A DNA stretch of 32,000 nt from Candidatus Heimdallarchaeota archaeon (GTDB taxonomy: Archaea > Asgardarchaeota > Heimdallarchaeia > Heimdallarchaeales > Heimdallarchaeaceae): NCBI GenBank assembly GCA_030668875.1, contig DAOVER010000006.1:69286-101285 (forward strand). Reading direction: 5' to 3'. Of the stretch, positions 10,152 through 27,512 are shown in pieces. Under the pieces are notes generated by a model. That model ran no database searches. It saw nothing but the letters and a program-made list of their open reading frames with translations, and had not been told where the DNA came from. How positions within the stretch are numbered: the stretch's first letter is position 1; each line of letters opens with the position of its first letter. The position numbers and the translations under genes are program-made.

Positions 10152-10187
10152 ATCTTACCACATAAATATTTTTCTCTGTGGTAAGAT
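10152..10187. repeat. Palindrome ATCTTACCACA-N14-TGTGGTAAGAT (copy 1)
   Basis: Perfect 11-bp arms with 14-nt AT-rich spacer. Confidence 0.85.
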
Positions 10188-10232: not shown

Positions 10233-10274
10233 ATTATCTTACCACATTCTTTATTATTTGTGTGGTAAGATAAT
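10233..10274. repeat. Palindrome ATTATCTTACCACA-N14-TGTGGTAAGATAAT (copy 2)
   Basis: Perfect 14-bp arms with 14-nt spacer; same core as copy 1. Confidence 0.85.
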
Positions 10275-11411: not shown

Positions 11412-11664
11412 TGGTCATTAAAACCTCAGAATCTATCACTATTTAATTTCCTTTTCTATTCTTCTTTTCCCTTTACAATAAGAAACCAATAGATTAGATC
11501 AAATCACTTCAGTTGCTCTATGAAAAAAGATGATTAGATAAGAACGGTAAACCAAAAGAAGAAGAAATCAGGAAACTTGGAATTAATTAATTTAAAAGAA
11601 TATATAAATTAAAATAAACGTGAACACAATTAATTCTTCAGAACAGTAAATAGGAGTAAATAGG

Positions 11665-13382
11665 TTATGTCAGTCTCACATATCCTTCTCTTAATGAATA
11701 AATCTCTCCATTACTTCGAAGTTGTTCTATAACTTTTTCAACAAAGTATTCTTCGATATTATTCTCTTTGGCAATCTCTTTGATTTTCCTTAAAGGCACT
11801 ATGTCGACACATCCTTTTCGAGATTCCTCTTTTATGATTAAATAGATTAACTCAAATTTTGCCTTCCAATTCTCCCCCCCTAATCCTAACAGCTGTGATT
11901 CTATTGTTTTTTTATATCCTATTTTCTTTAACGCATCAATTACAAACCATCTTACCTTCTCATCCTCATCTTTCAGACCTTAAATAAGAATTTTCATTAC
12001 CAGTTTACTTCCTTTGTTCCCTAATATTCTGGCAGCTTTTACTTGTAACCAGCTACTCTCATCTTTCAATATTTCAATTAGTTGTTCATCTGTTTTTCCA
12101 TCCCCTTTGTCCCCAAGCACAATTGCTACTCCTTTCCTTACAATCTTATTTTCTTCTTTTAGTGCATCAATGAGAATGAGTATTACTTGTTTGTCTTTTA
12201 TTAATTCTAATACCTCTACTGCTGCTCTCCTTACTTCCATATTGTCATCTTTTAGAGCTTTAATGAACAGACTAACACCTCTAACTCCGATGAATTTGGC
12301 TATTCTATATGGCGTGTCTCTTGCTCCTCTATTTGCAATCTCGTTTTTATCTTTTAACACTTCAAAAAGCAGATCACAAACTCGTTCATTTCCTTCTCTC
12401 CAACCTATATCACTTAAGGAATACTTAGCTGCATTTCTCACATTCTCAAATGAATCTTTAAGAGCTTCAATCAATGGTTCTGCTCCTAATAAGTCTCCTA
12501 TCTCCCCTAACGCTTTTGCAGCAACATGCCTTATGCTTTCATCGTCATCTTCTAGTACTTTTAAAAGTGGTTCAATAACATTTGTACCGCCAATTTTTCC
12601 TAATGCAATTACAATCTCCTTTTTTACCCGCAGGTACTGCTCATCTTTTAGTACTTCAATGAGTGGTTTTACAGCCTTTTCATGTCTTATATGTCCTAAT
12701 GCTAACACTGCATAACTTCTTATCCTTACATCTTCATCTTTCAGTGCTTCTATTAGTTGAGGGATTGCTCTTTCTCCTAAATCCAAATCTTTTATATAAG
12801 AAATTTCCATATTCTGATAATAATAATTTGCTTGCTTTCCAATCAATTCTAATGTTTTTGCTGCTTTAACCCTTACTTCCTGTGTTACGTCTTTGAGTGA
12901 TTTTCTGATATATGGTAACGCTTGTAAATCGCTAATATTCCCTAGCGCTTCTATTGCAATTAGTCTAATAACCTTATCTTGCGCTTCTAATGCATCAAAT
13001 AATGCATTCATCACACGTTGATCGTTGAATTTTTTTAATACTGTAGAAGCATTTTCCCTTACCATCTCATCTTCGTCTCCTAACATATTAAATAAGGGTT
13101 CTATAATTTGAGAACCACCAATATTACCCAATGATTCTACTACAGCTCTTCTTACATCCGAATCTTTATTTTTTAGCATTTCGATGAGCACAGAAAGCGA
13201 TTTTTTTTCAAGCCTTCTCCTTCACCCTCCCAGTATTTATCTTGAAATTCCTCTTCCAGTTTGATGAATTCAGGATCTTTAGATTCTTGTGACAATTTGG
13301 ATAGATTGAACTTTTGTTCCTTCTCTTTTCTAACTTCACTCTTCTTTTGAGTATCAGGTTCAAGCTGATCTTTCCAATCCAT
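11665..13382 (-). pseudogene. HEAT (PBS-lyase-like) repeat protein with C-terminal winged helix; disrupted by an A8 frameshift and an in-frame TAA
   Basis: ORF 13173-13382 joins 11980-13191 across the A8 run at 13201-13208. After TAA (11980-11982) the frame continues 104 codons (GLKDEDEKVRWFVIDALKKIG...GEIYSLREGYVRLT) to TAA at 11665-11667. Many LKDED..VR..A..ALG.IG repeats. Confidence 0.8.
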
Positions 13383-13430
13383 TACCTAGGAAAGAACAAT
13401 TGAATATAAAAATACAATCTTATGAATACA

Positions 13431-13500
13431 TTATTTTCACTTAAAGACCTAGTGGACTATGTTACCATTTTTTACAAACCTTTTCTACTTACATAAATTG
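13431..13500. repeat. Left direct repeat of cassette 2 (diverged copy of the ABC-permease 3' end)
   Basis: Aligns with 15661-15729; 24-bp identical core AAGACCTAGTGGACTATGTTACCA. Confidence 0.85.
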
Positions 13501-13671
13501 GCTTTAGATCTTTATTTTACGTTTTTTATTACATGAATCATACTTGTTTTTCTTATTCTGAGTTGTTTGTGTAAGAATTCCCTTCAAATACAGTTTTTCT
13601 GTCAACTTCTTTCCTTGTGTCTTTTAGTAGTTTGTTAATACTCTAAGTATGAATTTAACAAGTGATGAATC

Positions 13672-13740
13672 ATGATAAAACAAAAATATGATTCTGAACC
13701 AGGTGATGATGATATAGGACCTCCTTTATGGTGGCCATAA
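13672..13740 (+). CDS. Small peptide C, MIKQKYDSEPGDDDIGPPLWWP (22 aa), convergent with TPR-2
   Basis: Manual translation; AAGTGATG SD-like motif; TTTTAGTA at 13622-13629 (42 nt upstream); TGTCA at 13600-13604. Confidence 0.88.
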   Translation: MIKQKYDSEPGDDDIGPPLWWP

Positions 13741-15482: not shown

Positions 15483-15548
15483 TTAAGGTCTCCATAAGGG
15501 TGGTCCTATGTCATCATCACCTGGTTCAGGATCATATATTTGTTTCAT
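15483..15548 (-). CDS. Small peptide D, MKQIYDPEPGDDDIGPPLWRP (21 aa), upstream of TPR-2
   Basis: Manual translation; AAGTGATG SD-like motif; TTTAAATA TATA box at 15590-15597 (41 nt upstream); TGTCA at 15614-15618. Confidence 0.88.
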   Translation of the reverse strand: MKQIYDPEPGDDDIGPPLWRP

Positions 15549-15660
15549 ATTGCATCACTTAAGTTGTTTACATTATTGTATAAGGAGAATATTTAAACCT
15601 CAAAAGAAAGAAATGACACTAAAAAAATAACGAGTTTAGATTGTTGAAATTTCAATAAAA

Positions 15661-15729
15661 TTATTTTCCTTTAAGACCTAGTGGACTATGTTACCACTTT
15701 TTCTAACCCTTTTCTACTTGCATAGATTG
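15661..15729. repeat. Right direct repeat of cassette 2 (overlaps the permease stop codon)
   Basis: Aligns with 13431-13500. Confidence 0.85.
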
Positions 15730-17497
15730 AGGTTGTTGTTGCTATTAGTATGAATCCTACTATTACTGATATAATTATTACTGGAAAGTTCGATAATACT
15801 GCATAAGGTACAAGAAAATATCTACCTATTATTGCTCCGAAATAGCTTCCTAAAGCTATACCTGGGATGATTTGCAGAAGTATTGCCGTCACTACTGATC
15901 CGTATATGCTTTTCTTTTTTATTCCTAGCCTATACAGTAGTTCGAAATCCTTTCTATACGTTAGGAAATACAGGAACGAATATACTATTATTTGGAATGC
16001 AAATATCGCGAACATTATTCCTCCTAACACCTTAAACATAGTTGTAAAACTGTTATAATTCGCTAGATTTTGCTCGATCATTTTTTCCATGCTTATTATT
16101 TGATATTCATATCTTTCAAGAATCTCGCTTATTTTATCGTAAACTGTAGTACTTATATTTTCTAACATTAGTAAATTAGAACCATTAGCCACACCCTCTG
16201 CTATTAGTTTATTCAGTGGGCAATAAACACTGTATCCTGCTGCGAAACTATCTATCACTACACCACTAATTTGGTAATCATTTGAATCATCGTACAGTTT
16301 TAATTTTTGTAGAGTGCTATTATCAAAAAACTTAGCTTCTAAAGTATCACCTATTAAAACTTCATTTTTTGAAGGATTTGGGTTGTCCCCTGCTATATAT
16401 TCATTTTCGTTGAAATTAATATTTTCATATCCTATTATGGTAGCGTATACTTTACGATCTTGACCTATTGGTATGTACACATTATTCACTATTTCAAGCG
16501 CTGACATCTCTTTTATTTGCAGTTTTGAAATGAAATACTTCTGATACGTTACGTTTATCCCTCCTAATTCAGTTAATAGTTGAGTTGATATTGAAGTATT
16601 ATAGAAATGTTCTAGGTCATTATCTAATCCTGTGTACGAGCTATTACTATATTCCTGTACTGGTAAGCTCTGATTAAAGAAATCAATTGCATCTGGCTCT
16701 CCTATAACGTACGAGTAATCTTGAAATCTACTATTCAAATTTACATAATGTGTTTCAGCAACTGTTAGTGGTCCCAAAACGAATGAAATTGAGGAGAAAA
16801 TAAGAAAGAAGCTAAATAGAAAGCTAGACAGTACTTTTCCTGATCTTAGGAAATTCTTTACACCTAGCTTTACGGATGAAGTAAACTTGTTTATTAATGC
16901 ATCAAATTCAAAGATGCTTTTGTAGTTACTTAAACTGCTGGAAGATACTTCAAAGTCTTTTTCACTGATGAATTTTAATATTGTATAATGGGCTTTAATA
17001 TAAGAAGAAACCAATATTACCAGATTCCCTCCTAGTATTGGGAGAAACCCTACATAGCTAAAGATGCTCCCAAACCCAAAAGAAACACTTGTTATAACTA
17101 AAACAATTAATCCTAGAACCATTCCTAGAATCAACATTATAGTTGCTGTCAAAATTTGATTGAAGATAAAATAGCTGTATATCCACCTACTTTTTCCTCC
17201 TACATTTTTCATAACAGCGATGTCATCTTTTTGACTTTGAAATTTAAGCTCTATTGATCTGATAGTGACAATTACTCCAATTATTATACAAACCACAATG
17301 AAAATTACTGTAATCAACGTGTAGGAACTGAAGAAAACATAATCCAGTGACATTTGGAGATTAGCTCTCATTAGTGAGAATAAACCTATACTGATTGTAA
17401 TAGCTGAGTAGGTTATTATTTGGCTAATAAAGGTAAATAGTGAGCCTAGGAACGATCTTTTAAAATCAATCCATGCAAATTTCAGTTGTCCTATCAT
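15686..17497 (-). CDS. ABC transporter permease, FtsX/MacB/LolE family
   Basis: Multiple TM segments, DIAVMKNVGG and LLYRLGIKK FtsX-type motifs, large extracytoplasmic loop, adjacent ATPase. Confidence 0.85.
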   Translation of the reverse strand: MIGQLKFAWIDFKRSFLGSLFTFISQIITYSAITISIGLFSLMRANLQMSLDYVFFSSYTLITVIFIVVCIIIGVIVTIRSIELKFQSQKDDIAVMKNVGGKSRWIYSYFIFNQILTATIMLILGMVLGLIVLVITSVSFGFGSIFSYVGFLPILGGNLVILVSSYIKAHYTILKFISEKDFEVSSSSLSNYKSIFEFDALINKFTSSVKLGVKNFLRSGKVLSSFLFSFFLIFSSISFVLGPLTVAETHYVNLNSRFQDYSYVIGEPDAIDFFNQSLPVQEYSNSSYTGLDNDLEHFYNTSISTQLLTELGGINVTYQKYFISKLQIKEMSALEIVNNVYIPIGQDRKVYATIIGYENINFNENEYIAGDNPNPSKNEVLIGDTLEAKFFDNSTLQKLKLYDDSNDYQISGVVIDSFAAGYSVYCPLNKLIAEGVANGSNLLMLENISTTVYDKISEILERYEYQIISMEKMIEQNLANYNSFTTMFKVLGGIMFAIFAFQIIVYSFLYFLTYRKDFELLYRLGIKKKSIYGSVVTAILLQIIPGIALGSYFGAIIGRYFLVPYAVLSNFPVIIISVIVGFILIATTTSIYASRKGLEKVVT

Positions 17498-17516
17498 ATC
17501 TATCCCACTAACGTTA

Positions 17517-18365
17517 CTAGTTTTCCTGTTCTTCTTCTATGAAGTCTAGCTCTTCTTCTGTCATGTTCATTAATTCTTCCTCTGTATAATCATCAATAGG
17601 TTCAGTTTCTTCGTTTTGCATCTCCATAGAACTGATAGATCTATACTTAGTATCTTGTTTCTTTTTTCTTTCAGGATGTTCTTCTTCAAGTGTTACAGAT
17701 TGTGCTCCTACACGATATATTGTCGATGCTATTTCCTTCATTTTGGGGTCATGTGATGATACAATAATAGTTATGTCTGTTGTTGTAAATATTTCTTTAA
17801 TTAATTCGCACATCATATCAGCTGATTCACGATCTAAATTACCTGTGGGTTCGTCTAATATTAGGATGTAAGGGTCATTAGACAATGCTCTTGCTATTGC
17901 CACACGTTTCTTTTCTCCCCCACTTAACTGTGCTGGAAAACTATCTTTCCTTTTATCTATCTTCAATCTCTCTAATAATTCGTCTATCTTTTTTTCTCTT
18001 TCTTCCTCCTCTCCATCAAAACCACATAATTCCTGGAAGAGGATTATATTTTCTTTTACAGTAAGTGTAGAGACCAAATTATTTTCTTGAAAAACAATTC
18101 CAAGATAATTTGAGCGAAAATCAGCTTTTTCTCTATCTTCTATTAGATCTATGTACAATCCAGCTACTTCTATTTCCCCCTCATTTGGGTGCAAAAGCCC
18201 AGTTAATATGTTTAATAGAGTTGTTTTTCCACTTCCACTTGGACCATACAATAATACCAATTCATTTCTTTCTACCTCTAAATTTACTTCTTTAAGTATA
18301 ACTAATTCCTCCCAGAATAATTGAAATTTCTTTGATATATTGGCAAAACGCACGATTTGTTCCAT
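17517..18365 (-). CDS. ABC transporter ATP-binding protein (LolD/MacB-like) with acidic C-terminal tail
   Basis: GPSGSGKTT, LSGGEKKRVAIARAL, ILILDEPTGNLD, H-loop SHD. ATG 18365 is preferred over 18380. Confidence 0.93.
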   Translation of the reverse strand: MEQIVRFANISKKFQLFWEELVILKEVNLEVERNELVLLYGPSGSGKTTLLNILTGLLHPNEGEIEVAGLYIDLIEDREKADFRSNYLGIVFQENNLVSTLTVKENIILFQELCGFDGEEEEREKKIDELLERLKIDKRKDSFPAQLSGGEKKRVAIARALSNDPYILILDEPTGNLDRESADMMCELIKEIFTTTDITIIVSSHDPKMKEIASTIYRVGAQSVTLEEEHPERKKKQDTKYRSISSMEMQNEETEPIDDYTEEELMNMTEEELDFIEEEQEN

Positions 18366-18448
18366 CTTAATCCCACACACAATTAAGTGGTAATAAGTAT
18401 TTATCTGTTTTATTATTTCTCTGTTCTGGGTAATAGAGTATAATAGTA

Positions 18449-18494
18449 AAAATATAGGTAGCGAAGTTTCGAAATGAGATTATCATTCAAGGGT
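18449..18494. repeat. Left direct repeat of cassette 3
   Basis: 46 bp matching 20433-20478 with 2 mismatches. Confidence 0.9.
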
Positions 18495-18563
18495 TCTATA
18501 CCGACGAAGAAATTAAGAGACATCTAAAAGACTTACATGAACATGATTACCCTCTTTAGAGCT

Positions 18564-20156
18564 CTATACTGTTCTTCTTATATCCTTATGCTGCAATTGT
18601 AAGTACTTTAGTAATGTATTTTCTAATCTAGAGAATCCGTAGAGTCTGCATTTTTTAATTGCCATGTATTGTAAAGCTGGCCCAAGAGGATCTCCGCTAT
18701 TATAAGCTCCTACTTGAATGAAAGCCTCCATAAAGATGCGGATCTCTAGAACCTCAATTCGTTTGAGTCTACTCTCATATTGCTTGAGGAGAGGAGCGAT
18801 TTCTGCGTAACGCTTAAGAGAAAACAGTTGCTGTGCTATAAGGAGATCTGTATAGGCCTGTTCTATGAATGTAGTCTTATCTGTCTTTACTCGTTTTTCT
18901 AAGATAGAAATAAAGTTCAGATTTTTCTGTTCCTGACTAATTTCCGTTTCTAATTTTTGCTTTTCAAGCATGAATTCGATTAGATGTTTTACTCGATTAA
19001 TGCTGAAATTATCGATTGCTAATAATGATTGAAGTTTAGCAGAATCAAGATTGGAATTAAGGATGAACTCACTAAAGATCATAAAATCGCTATAATGAAC
19101 CTTACAATCTTCATTTATTTCTTCTATTAATTCTTGGTGTTCTTGAGAATTGTAACTGCTTAAACGTGATAAATTATAGAATTTTATTAAACTGTGAGTA
19201 TGAGTAATTTGCTTCTTGGTGTTTTCATCCAAATTTTTCTTGATAAATTCTGTTTGGAGAAGAGTTTCTGCTTCTTTAACCATATTTGAAGCTTGCTCAT
19301 TTTTCCCTTGTAAACCTCTAACGGTAGCAATATAAGAAAGTAAAACAAGATAATATGCAAAATAGATGCTGTTTTTGTATACTGGTTTGAGAATACTGTA
19401 AGCTTCATTAAAATATGATTCAGCTATTGCTAGATTAGCATCTAACATATACCCCAAACCTGTGAAATAGTAAATGATTCCTTTAAAATCGCTAGATAGT
19501 TTTTCGAAAAGAGTTCTGTTAGCAAGGATTCTATTACTTATGTTTAAGGCTTTCTTGCTCTCATGAGTACGACTGTAAATAATGCTCAAGAGACCAAAAG
19601 TTTGAGCCAAACTTCGGTAAAACCCTTCTTGAATGAAATGTTCAACACAGTCCTCTAAAAGCACCGCACTTTCCGCACTATGATTTTGCAACCAGATTTC
19701 TATCGCATATGAATATTTACACGTGAATATTGTATATGTATCTGACACATTTCTTTCGTTAATAAATTCAAGAGCAAGTTGTATTTCTCTACTACTACTT
19801 TTTGTGTTTCCTTGAAGTCTCTCAAGATGCCATTTAATCTGATGTACAAGTGCTAGTCCTTCGGAAAATTCTATTTTTTGGGATAATTCATACATTTTCG
19901 TTAATATTCTCTTAATTTTCACAATATTACTGGCGTGGTTATATAACTGTCTTATTTGTAAATCGTATAAACGAATAAGTGTTTTTGTGTCTTTTATTTT
20001 ACTGCTTTGTTCTATTGCATTTTCAATGTACTGACAGATTAATGGTTCGCTTTTATTAGAAGCAATGACTCTTAGCTTTTTTACTAGATCAAATAACTTC
20101 TCTCCACTAGTGATATTATTAACTTTACGAAAATTATTACCTTTCTCCAATTTCAT
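18564..20156 (-). CDS. TPR-like helical repeat protein 3 (intact, 530 aa)
   Basis: Paralogue with the same C-terminal block (FMEAFIQVGAYNSGDPLGPALQYMAIKKC). TTTATATA box about 24 nt before the ATG. Confidence 0.87.
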   Translation of the reverse strand: MKLEKGNNFRKVNNITSGEKLFDLVKKLRVIASNKSEPLICQYIENAIEQSSKIKDTKTLIRLYDLQIRQLYNHASNIVKIKRILTKMYELSQKIEFSEGLALVHQIKWHLERLQGNTKSSSREIQLALEFINERNVSDTYTIFTCKYSYAIEIWLQNHSAESAVLLEDCVEHFIQEGFYRSLAQTFGLLSIIYSRTHESKKALNISNRILANRTLFEKLSSDFKGIIYYFTGLGYMLDANLAIAESYFNEAYSILKPVYKNSIYFAYYLVLLSYIATVRGLQGKNEQASNMVKEAETLLQTEFIKKNLDENTKKQITHTHSLIKFYNLSRLSSYNSQEHQELIEEINEDCKVHYSDFMIFSEFILNSNLDSAKLQSLLAIDNFSINRVKHLIEFMLEKQKLETEISQEQKNLNFISILEKRVKTDKTTFIEQAYTDLLIAQQLFSLKRYAEIAPLLKQYESRLKRIEVLEIRIFMEAFIQVGAYNSGDPLGPALQYMAIKKCRLYGFSRLENTLLKYLQLQHKDIRRTV

Positions 20157-20218
20157 TCACATAATGATTATACGTAAAATGGTATATAAAGGGAGATATA
20201 ATTCTCCCCAGATAGAAA

Positions 20219-20287
20219 TCAGTGTGGGGACCAAAGTGGGGGAAGTATACTTTCGTCTCCGTCTTCCGGATCATATTTTTGTTTCAT
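20219..20287 (-). CDS. Small peptide E, MKQKYDPEDGDESILPPLWSPH (22 aa), upstream of TPR-3
   Basis: Manual translation; GAGTGATG SD-like motif; TTTTAGTA at 20330-20337 (42 nt upstream); TGTCA at 20355-20359. Confidence 0.88.
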   Translation of the reverse strand: MKQKYDPEDGDESILPPLWSPH

Positions 20288-20432
20288 TGTTCATCACTCT
20301 TTTGTGTTATACTTAGAAGAAGAAAAAACTACTAAAAGACAACAAGAAAGAAACTGACAAAGAGACTGTTTTACTATTAAAAATATCAATAATACAGGTA
20401 TTTTCTAAAAAGGATTAAGAATGCCATAAGAT

Positions 20433-20478
20433 AAAATATGGGTAGCGAAGTTTCGAGATGAGATTATCATTCAAGGGT
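20433..20478. repeat. Right direct repeat of cassette 3
   Basis: Matches 18449-18494; overlaps an 11-bp inverted repeat (20443-20453 / 20509-20519). Confidence 0.9.
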
Positions 20479-20581
20479 CTACACCAATAAGTCCAATCCC
20501 ACACGAGAAAACTTCGCTAGATAGACATGATTGTTGTACATTATATCCTTTTTTGTTAGCGTTACTGATGATCGTTTTCTA

Positions 20582-21394
20582 TCATACAGTGCGAAAATCG
20601 ATGTTTATGTGTATAATGTTAACAGTTAGCGAGAAAACTGGAGGCGCCAATGTATAAGCAATATTTTGTGAAAAGCCTGTTGTTAGAGCTTTTACAGATA
20701 GCTCATTATTTTGCTCACCGAGATTTATACTTTCTATTACTTGACTTAATTTCACAATCTGTATTTTATCTTGTGTATTTACTATTGGAAAATACTCTCC
20801 TTGTCCATCCAAAGTTTTTGAAGTGTTTAAGTGAACTATCATGAAATTAACTTCTACATCTGAATCACTTGTTTGTTCAATACTTACAAAAACACTGTAG
20901 TATAATTGAATAGTTTTGTATCCATCAAATGTTTGGTGGACTATATTCATCATTTGTGCTGTTCTGTTAAGCGAATATACAAGCAATAATGGACTTCCAA
21001 AGTCATATATTGCCCCTCCTAACCCCTCAAAATTCCCTTCTATTTTATACTCAACCTCTCCTGTAAAATAGGATTTATTCAGTAAATTAACTCCTCCTGA
21101 ATTTATCATTAAGGATATTTCTCTATTTTGTTTCAAATCTAGTATCCCACTATCAAGATTATATCTTAGTACGCTTGACGAGTTATCTGGTGTGTTGATG
21201 AGTGTTTTAATTTCTGAATCGAAAGACAAGAATGTGTTTGTAGCAGCTGTTAGATCACTCTGTGTCTGAAACCTTTCTAATGATGGTATTATTTGCGAAA
21301 AAGCTAAACCTAAAGCAGAAACCATTACTGTGAAGATAACTAAAGTTGATATAATACTTGAAACTCCTCGACGAGATTTGAGTATTTTCATCAT
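20582..21394 (-). CDS. Archaeal type IV pilin/archaellin-like protein (class III signal peptide)
   Basis: MMKILKSRRG/VSSIISTLVIFTVMVSALGLAF: basic residues, RG cleavage site, then a hydrophobic helix. Confidence 0.75.
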   Translation of the reverse strand: MMKILKSRRGVSSIISTLVIFTVMVSALGLAFSQIIPSLERFQTQSDLTAATNTFLSFDSEIKTLINTPDNSSSVLRYNLDSGILDLKQNREISLMINSGGVNLLNKSYFTGEVEYKIEGNFEGLGGAIYDFGSPLLLVYSLNRTAQMMNIVHQTFDGYKTIQLYYSVFVSIEQTSDSDVEVNFMIVHLNTSKTLDGQGEYFPIVNTQDKIQIVKLSQVIESINLGEQNNELSVKALTTGFSQNIAYTLAPPVFSLTVNIIHINIDFRTV

Positions 21395-21461
21395 GTATAT
21401 TATGTTAAACAATTTGTCTTATTTAACTTTGCGGAACTTCTTACGCAAACGTCATCTAGTA

Positions 21462-27478: not shown

Positions 27479-27512
27479 TCTTACCACATAAAATGTATAT
27501 TGCGTGGTAAGA
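27479..27512. repeat. Palindrome TCTTACCACA-N14-CGTGGTAAGA (copy 3)
   Basis: Same arms (1 mismatch) and same 14-nt spacing as the copies at 10152 and 10233. Confidence 0.8.

Follow-up and report, generated by a model that had tools for sequence, protein, structure and literature searches.

Both copies of a direct repeat around a tetratricopeptide-repeat cassette in a Heimdallarchaeota genome trace to a predicted small RNA gene

In the displacement arrays of Rhs, contact-dependent inhibition (CDI) and type VI secretion system (T6SS) loci, a variable module stands behind a conserved upstream anchor, and a fragment of the anchor's 3' end forms a direct repeat ahead of the displaced native downstream DNA. 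For T6SS effector-immunity displacement arrays and Rhs tips, homology-facilitated illegitimate recombination or the integration of a circle has been proposed (PMC5361080, PMC2935791). Elements that target tRNA or tmRNA genes, such as tyrosine-integrase islands and the SSV-type archaeal proviruses, insert at the 3' end of a structured RNA gene and duplicate its 3' part, so that the gene stays intact. Here we analyze a locus with features of both, a direct repeat enclosing a two-gene cassette (cassette 3) that encodes a short peptide and a tetratricopeptide-repeat (TPR) protein, TPR-3. It lies in a 32,000-nucleotide stretch of contig DAOVER010000006.1, referred to below as the window, from a metagenome-assembled genome (MAG) of Candidatus Heimdallarchaeota (3.23 Mb, 99 contigs, 33.8% G+C). 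The right copy of the repeat belongs to a predicted, conserved structured RNA gene; the left copy is an orphan half of that gene and probably the scar left when an occupied allele of the site was joined illegitimately to an empty one. Asgard archaea are of special interest for the origin of eukaryotes, and to our knowledge almost no non-coding RNAs have been described for them.

The repeat and the small RNA gene

Allowing one indel, BLAST aligns 18449-18502 with 20433-20485 at 93% identity (about 54 nt), and the 3.23-Mb genome contains no further copy, all weaker matches having E > 1. The initial annotation of the window, made from its sequence, had described the ungapped part of this repeat (18449-18494 and 20433-20478) as 46 bp with two mismatches, enclosing only TPR-3 and peptide E; 44 of 46 positions are indeed identical, and the enclosed genes are TPR-3 and a 22-amino-acid peptide gene with its promoter region. 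A dispersed element was ruled out by the count of two repeat copies in the genome and by the single match per genome to the covariance model described below. The features needed here, all on the minus strand, are as follows.

20433..20485, minus strand: right repeat copy (R3R); covers the apical loop, the 3' half and the T-tract of the complete small RNA (sRNA) gene
18449..18502, minus strand: left repeat copy (R3L); orphan half (the 3' one) of the sRNA gene, running directly into the native spacer between the sRNA and the ATP-binding cassette (ABC) ATPase gene
20437..20520, minus strand (hairpin 20443-20519): conserved structured sRNA gene of about 73 nt, predicted from fold, covariance model and covariation
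20540..20548, minus strand: TATA-like octamer GATATAAT, ending 22 nt upstream of GCGAAG; putative sRNA promoter
20582..21412, minus strand: DUF7289-like protein with an N-terminal pilin-type signal sequence, assigned by a weak Pfam match and synteny; conserved upstream neighbor of the sRNA

The right copy lies within a 77-nt hairpin closed by exact 11-bp arms (TAGCGAAGTTT, 20443-20453; AAACTTCGCTA, 20509-20519). On the minus strand the hairpin folds with -28.9 kcal/mol (z = -3.7), a stability equaled by none of 200 shuffled sequences, and on the plus strand with only -19.6 kcal/mol (z = -1.6), because the inner stem contains several G-U pairs. Both the hairpin and its G-U-containing inner stem on the minus strand had been noted at first reading, as had the placement of the repeat in the minus-strand 3' half of the hairpin, which alignment to the conserved sRNA gene bears out. 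The left copy is unable to form the hairpin, and the covariance model gives no match there.

Congeners were compared at the locus where the neighboring DUF7289-like gene could be located, which was the case for 20; all 20 carry a hairpin of about 73 nt after that gene, conserved far above the surrounding spacer. From 16 sequences we built a covariance model, which scores the window's sRNA at 97 bits, its sole match in the genome, and finds one copy per genome in 20 of the 23 genomes of the genus and in 25 of the 29 other genomes of the family, including three other genera; none of 16 genomes from other families of the order gave a match to this model. The predicted RNA comprises an invariant lower stem of 9-10 bp, a 3-bp stem, an inner stem of 6-8 bp that includes G-U pairs, an internal loop (GA / AUGA) that is conserved, and an apical mini-stem that varies. 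Between genera, the inner stem shows compensatory changes from GGGAYU/ARUCUC to GGGUCU/AGACUC to GAAUCU/AGAUUC, and the 3-bp stem from UCG/CGA to UUG/CAA, while the mini-stem occurs in at least six sequence versions (e.g., GGU/ACC, GGC/GCC, GCA/UGC, GGUA/UACC). Paired cells amount to 95%, compared to 37-48% when partners are slid, and six pairs have changed on both sides; the covariation score of 0.197 (0.110 for shuffled alignments) was reached in none of 500 shuffles.

In nearly all genomes a TATA-like octamer, in most relatives TTTATATT, likewise ends 22 nt ahead of GCGAAG, which is conserved, and the stem leads into a T-tract. The fixed spacing and the T-tract would fit an independent archaeal transcription unit, and judged by archaeal promoter geometry the box is the putative promoter of the sRNA itself. 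We searched Rfam with the whole window at gathering thresholds without a match, and with 20380-20580 without a meaningful family at E <= 10; ARAGORN reported no tRNA or tmRNA. On this comparative evidence, the hairpin is a predicted structured RNA gene of Heimdallarchaeota, conserved and previously undescribed, and the right copy is best explained as part of a functional, probably vertically inherited sRNA gene downstream of the pilin-like gene. The guess that the target might be a small structured RNA is thereby upheld, and covariation extends it to a family-wide gene.

Known classes of guide RNA were considered and rejected. No RUGAUGA/CUGA pair occurs at the termini, as a box C/D RNA would require, and an H/ACA RNA would need an ACA box, which is lacking; past the lower stem the tail is variable (ACC, AUC, ACU, AUU, CUU), and the UCG/CGA segment in place of the pocket is paired and covaries to UUG/CAA. 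The GA (5' strand) and AUGA (3' strand) of the internal loop are invariant and correctly placed beside the inner stem for a kink-turn (K-turn), and the C-stem side offers a single C=G pair followed by U-U mismatches; GA opposite AUGA could be a K-turn-like motif with tandem sheared G-A pairs. The sRNA was also rejected as a leader of the ABC operon, because it is followed by PEPCK in genus g13 and by a convergent TPR gene in genus g10. Its only common neighbor across genera is the upstream pilin-like gene. Separately, we observed that the locus of genus g10 (L112:7002-15640) is rearranged around the sRNA: the ABC-FtsX operon, divergently oriented, is found on the opposite side of the coiled-coil and pilin-like genes, and the TPR gene converges on the sRNA 3' end.

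The empty site and the ancestry of its flanks

Cassette 3 fills the interval between the two repeat copies.

18503..20432, minus strand: cassette 3; absent at the site in 18 of 20 relatives
about 20288-20389, minus strand: promoter region of cassette 3, of a kind common to all peptide genes
20219-20287, minus strand: peptide E gene (22 amino acids)
18564-20156, minus strand: TPR-3
18503-18563, minus strand: 3' untranslated region (UTR) of TPR-3

Searches of NCBIfam and the ESM Atlas with TPR-3 returned nothing specific beyond TPR-like. An empty order of DUF7289-like gene, sRNA, ABC ATPase and FtsX-like permease is found in 18 of the 20 congeners and on one metagenome contig, with about 230 nt between the DUF7289-like and ABC ATPase coding genes. 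The metagenome comparison covered contigs and unitigs of other samples and studies; a metagenome scan for further alleles of the sRNA 3' half yielded one extra contig, an empty site of another species. From position 18502 to the ABC start codon, the window aligns without interruption to the empty site of G002 (the nearest empty-site relative, with proteins about 90% identical), beginning at the sRNA apical loop and running on through the T-tract and spacer. The window therefore consists of the empty site, the cassette and a second copy of the sRNA 3' half. By this comparison cassette 3 is an insertion relative to the empty site, as the cassettes had been taken to be from the start.

Cassette 3 occupies this same position in two sister genomes, G016 and G021, with a right junction homologous to the window's. 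We found no second sRNA fragment at their site; a second peptide gene follows TPR-3, and the native spacer restarts 5-30 nt past the position of the T-tract. In these genomes the cassette would thus be a plain insertion with no target duplication. Because the local tree joins the window to G016 and leaves G021 outside, the repeat-free arrangement of G016 and G021 is the older one. The TPR-3 genes themselves differ unevenly: that of G016 (L025:4341-5919) is 80% identical to the window's (18564-20156) over residues 198-528 and 37% over residues 11-197, a contrast that indicates probable exchange of modules among TPR paralogues within the gene.

Ancestry changes at the left copy. Over the coiled-coil gene, the DUF7289-like gene and the sRNA, sliding identity places the window at 91-93% to G016/G021 and 81% to G002. 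Directly beyond the left copy this pattern reverses, with informative sites mostly uniting the window and G002, and below about position 17000 the G016/G021 pattern returns. The tract in between and the partitions around it are listed below, with maximum-likelihood (ML) trees, ultrafast bootstrap (UFBoot) values and divergences at four-fold degenerate sites.

17000..18448, minus strand: recombinant tract, comprising the ABC upstream spacer, the ABC ATPase gene (17517-18380) and roughly the initial 500 nt of the gene for the FtsX-like permease; groups with G002
DUF7289 partition: ((window,G016)74,G021)88, G002 outside; divergence window-G002 0.46, window-G016 0.23
ABC and 5' FtsX partition: ((window,G002)93,G016)78; divergence window-G002 0.27, window-G016 0.33
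middle FtsX partition: ((window,G016)82,G021)79; divergence window-G002 0.47, window-G016 0.22

The shift is also seen at four-fold degenerate sites and is therefore not an effect of selective constraint. The tract of about 1.4 kb joined to the orphan half-copy thus derives from a lineage related to G002. Empty-site relatives co-occur with the window's organism in the same sediment samples.

Origin of the repeat

We propose, with a probability of about 0.6, that the repeat is the scar of an illegitimate joint, homology-facilitated or of the displacement type, between an occupied and an empty allele. The proposal builds on the RNA gene, the empty site, the lack of a left copy in both sisters and the mosaic ancestry; from these we infer the order of events, the mechanism of the joint and, only tentatively, which allele was the recipient. 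A peptide and TPR cassette would have entered the spacer just after the sRNA T-tract, in an ancestor common to the window, G016 and G021, and this original insertion would have duplicated no target sequence. Later, in the window's lineage, a non-homologous joint would have linked the TPR-3 3' UTR to the sRNA apical loop of an empty allele, at the center of the palindrome, and the exchange would have been completed by an ordinary homologous crossover within the permease gene, some 1.4 kb away. The expected product has the order full sRNA, cassette, orphan sRNA 3' half, native spacer and ABC operon. A Campbell-type integration of a circle bearing part of the anchor would lead to the same product.

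What illegitimate recombination should leave behind is present, namely one novel non-homologous joint beside a tract of differing ancestry (UFBoot 93). The center of a 77-bp palindrome is a plausible fragile point for the break. Microhomology at the joint, between CTTATGGT in the TPR-3 3' UTR of G016 and CTTATTGGT in the sRNA, is only suggestive, the window's own joint having since diverged (CTTCGTCGGT).

Several points weigh against this account. The tree nodes that polarize it are moderately supported (74-93), the region is a fine-scale mosaic, and the few diagnostic sites within the left copy are not specific to G002, so the donor lineage would be an unsampled one. The mechanism of the joint is deduced from comparative data alone, and the order may have been the reverse, the cassette reaching an empty resident through a joint of this kind and the sisters losing the half-copy afterwards. 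Above all, a second scar of the same type lies within 7 kb, at cassette 2 (in the window and in G002), which is more than a rare accident predicts and could hint at a directed process. It is because of this second scar, about 5 kb away, that we hold our confidence at 0.6. Its two copies are the following.

15654..15729, minus strand: right repeat of cassette 2 (R2R); true 3' end of the gene for the FtsX-like permease, with 32 nt downstream
13425..13500, minus strand: left repeat of cassette 2 (R2L); a second copy of the permease 3' end, decayed and carrying an in-frame stop

At cassette 2 of G002, the left copy directly abuts native downstream DNA. G021 has no cassette 2, its permease stop being followed directly by the DNA found at window position 11418 and below, and G016 has the cassette with no repeat. 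Aligned to each other, the cassette-3 and cassette-2 repeats reach a local score of 9, against a mean of 9.2 for shuffled sequences, i.e., chance level; the absence of a common att core had been recognized at the outset.

Among other explanations the one that survives best, although we consider it unlikely, is a dedicated mechanism which, at every insertion, either introduces staggered cuts spaced 45-75 bp or copies the target upstream. This comes close to the view of the initial annotation, which had the cassettes move by duplicating 45-70 bp of whatever target lies upstream. In its favor, cassettes 2 and 3 are each flanked by a repeated 3' end of upstream DNA in the same orientation, cassette 2 of G002 shows the same pattern, and the break in the sRNA falls at a palindrome center, a plausible cut site. 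The sister genomes speak against it, however, since G016 and G021 lack a duplication at cassette 3 and G016 lacks one at cassette 2, and so does a survey of 42 cassettes, 7 in the window's genome and 35 in other Heimdallarchaeota genomes. Only cassettes 2 and 3 of the 7 have flanking repeats other than peptide genes or promoters, leaving 5 with no target-derived repeat. Elsewhere the flanking repeats are peptide genes, promoter regions, the terminator-like element of TPR 3' UTRs or a dispersed dyad, the first three being boundaries of tandem arrays; the single target-derived exception among the 35 is cassette 2 of G002. About ten apparent further target duplications proved on inspection to belong to these same four kinds.

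Most homologous cassettes thus lack the target-derived repeat that the initial annotation had expected around them. Nor do the cassettes resemble transposons: the repeats measure 54 and 76 nt and are unrelated, the cassette ends share no sequence and are unconserved, and a Pfam search of all larger open reading frames of the 32-kb window, including the cassette, detected no integrase or transposase. Finally, ancestry switches exactly at the left copy, so that the DNA beside the left and right copies has different phylogenetic histories, pointing to a one-off joint and not to a mechanism common to the cassettes.

Somewhat less probable still is a related idea in which the 3' ends of the sRNA and permease genes are preferred landing sites for cassettes, and a trans-acting or RNA- or hairpin-directed system copies part of the anchor. 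The repeat-free state of the sisters would then be secondary, and the orphan half-copy, complementary to the sRNA 5' half, might couple the TPR-3 mRNA to the sRNA.

Site-specific integration into the sRNA 3' end, with the integrase acting in trans or lost and the repeat representing attL and attR, is improbable. It would explain why the duplicated part is the 3' half of a structured RNA gene that is left intact, and a TPR cassette adjoins the sRNA 3' end in another genus as well, in opposite orientation. However, no integrase was found in the cassette, in the window or, among the relatives examined, beside the cassette; the sister genomes lack an attL-like copy, the other genus has no half-copy, and cassette 2 uses a wholly different sequence. 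We give even less credence to the notion that both copies are a functional cis-element (promoter, operator or terminator) upstream of the pepE-TPR-3 unit and of the ABC operon. Each copy does lie directly upstream of a transcription unit on the minus strand and ends in a T-tract, but the right one is merely part of the sRNA gene, 18 relatives have the full sRNA and not a half upstream of the ABC operon, G016 and G021 have that operon with no copy at all, and the cassette-2 repeat is a decayed coding fragment.

Least credible is an assembly chimera of occupied and empty strains, which the 99 contigs of the MAG and the shared samples might suggest: the left junction is spanned with zero differences by a 292-nt unitig of another sample (18344-18635) and, at about 3% divergence, by contigs of a different, cold-seep study (18458-18638 and 18458-18796), so it is not an assembly artifact, and a k-mer switch within the shared RNA half would have yielded an empty site and not a joint of TPR-3 3' UTR to loop.

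Other observations concern the cassettes and their surroundings. A terminator-like hairpin with a T-run (GGGGTTCTTGTATTCCTTGGAGTTTTT and variants) directly follows the stop codon of many TPR genes (window 18503-18563, L074, L079, L085, L086, L092), and solo TPR 3' UTR elements upstream of other cassettes mark former tandem-array boundaries. The dispersed dyad, CTTACCAC-N14-16-GTGGTAAG, has five copies in the genome, three in the window (10154-10185, 10238-10269, 27480-27511) and two elsewhere (C9:61618, C66:20358). Those in the window adjoin cassettes 1 and 4, and at two further Heimdallarchaeota loci (L101, L102) TPR cassettes are enclosed by this dyad; possible roles are operator, terminator and recombination site. 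Contig C9 (1621-5652 and 47593-49411) encodes three more TPR paralogues with peptide genes, two of them in tandem; a direct repeat of 264 nt found there is made up of peptide promoter regions.

Cassette 2 is bounded by inverted copies of a peptide gene (13666-13740 and 15483-15557; 75 nt, 83%). TPR-2 has the opposite orientation in G002 (L027:6197-8127), so that it follows a different peptide gene in each genome, and the segment between the inverted genes has apparently been flipped. About 2 kb after R2L (11419-13424), with a HEAT/PBS-lyase repeat gene and open reading frames of 69 and 44 amino acids, are absent in G002, G016 and G021, where the flanks are contiguous; this looks like a further insertion. 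The genes for the MacB-like ABC ATPase and the FtsX-like permease form an operon (15686-18380; also L028, L036, L037, L112, L116). A TPR cassette after the permease gene is common in the genus and occurs in genus g10 too, which hints that the transporter and the peptide and TPR pairs may work together, for example in peptide export.

Significance and comparison with known systems

The sRNA adds to the Asgard archaea a candidate structured RNA that is family-wide, single-copy, supported by covariation and not in Rfam. Around it, Heimdallarchaeota populations appear to exchange and rebuild chromosomal loci by homologous recombination and occasional illegitimate joints, the same process that is thought to build the polymorphic toxin and immunity arrays of bacteria. 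The peptide and TPR cassettes would then not be autonomous mobile elements; they would be shuffled by host recombination between occupied and empty alleles, also inverted between inverted peptide genes, and possibly removable via their flanking repeats. They may constitute a peptide-receptor system beside a MacB-like exporter.

Compared with archaeal K-turn sRNAs (box C/D and H/ACA guide RNAs, which bind L7Ae), the sRNA is similar in its length of about 70 nt, stable hairpin, TATA-like box and oligo-T end, and its conserved internal loop of GA opposite AUGA could form tandem sheared G-A pairs. It differs in lacking terminal C (RUGAUGA) and D (CUGA) boxes, an ACA after the lower stem and an Rfam match, and in having its would-be pseudouridylation pocket base-paired and covarying.

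With the elements that target tRNA and tmRNA genes, the locus shares insertion at the 3' end of a structured RNA and duplication of the 3' part with the gene left intact. Unlike them, it lacks both an integrase and a conserved att core, sister genomes share the insertion but not the repeat, and the insert is a 1.9-kb two-gene cassette.

The Rhs, CDI and T6SS displacement arrays (PMC5361080, PMC2935791) resemble it in the conserved upstream anchor, whose 3'-end fragment is repeated before the displaced native DNA, and also in the lack of a dedicated recombinase, the mosaic flanks and the variable length of the repeat. The anchor, however, is here an sRNA gene (at cassette 2, the permease 3' end) and there a toxin core; the modules are peptide and TPR genes of an Asgard archaeon, no array of orphan tips is present at the site, and the mechanism is deduced from comparative data only. 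The underlying recombination process is thus of a known kind; the sRNA and this picture of recombination in an Asgard lineage are new.

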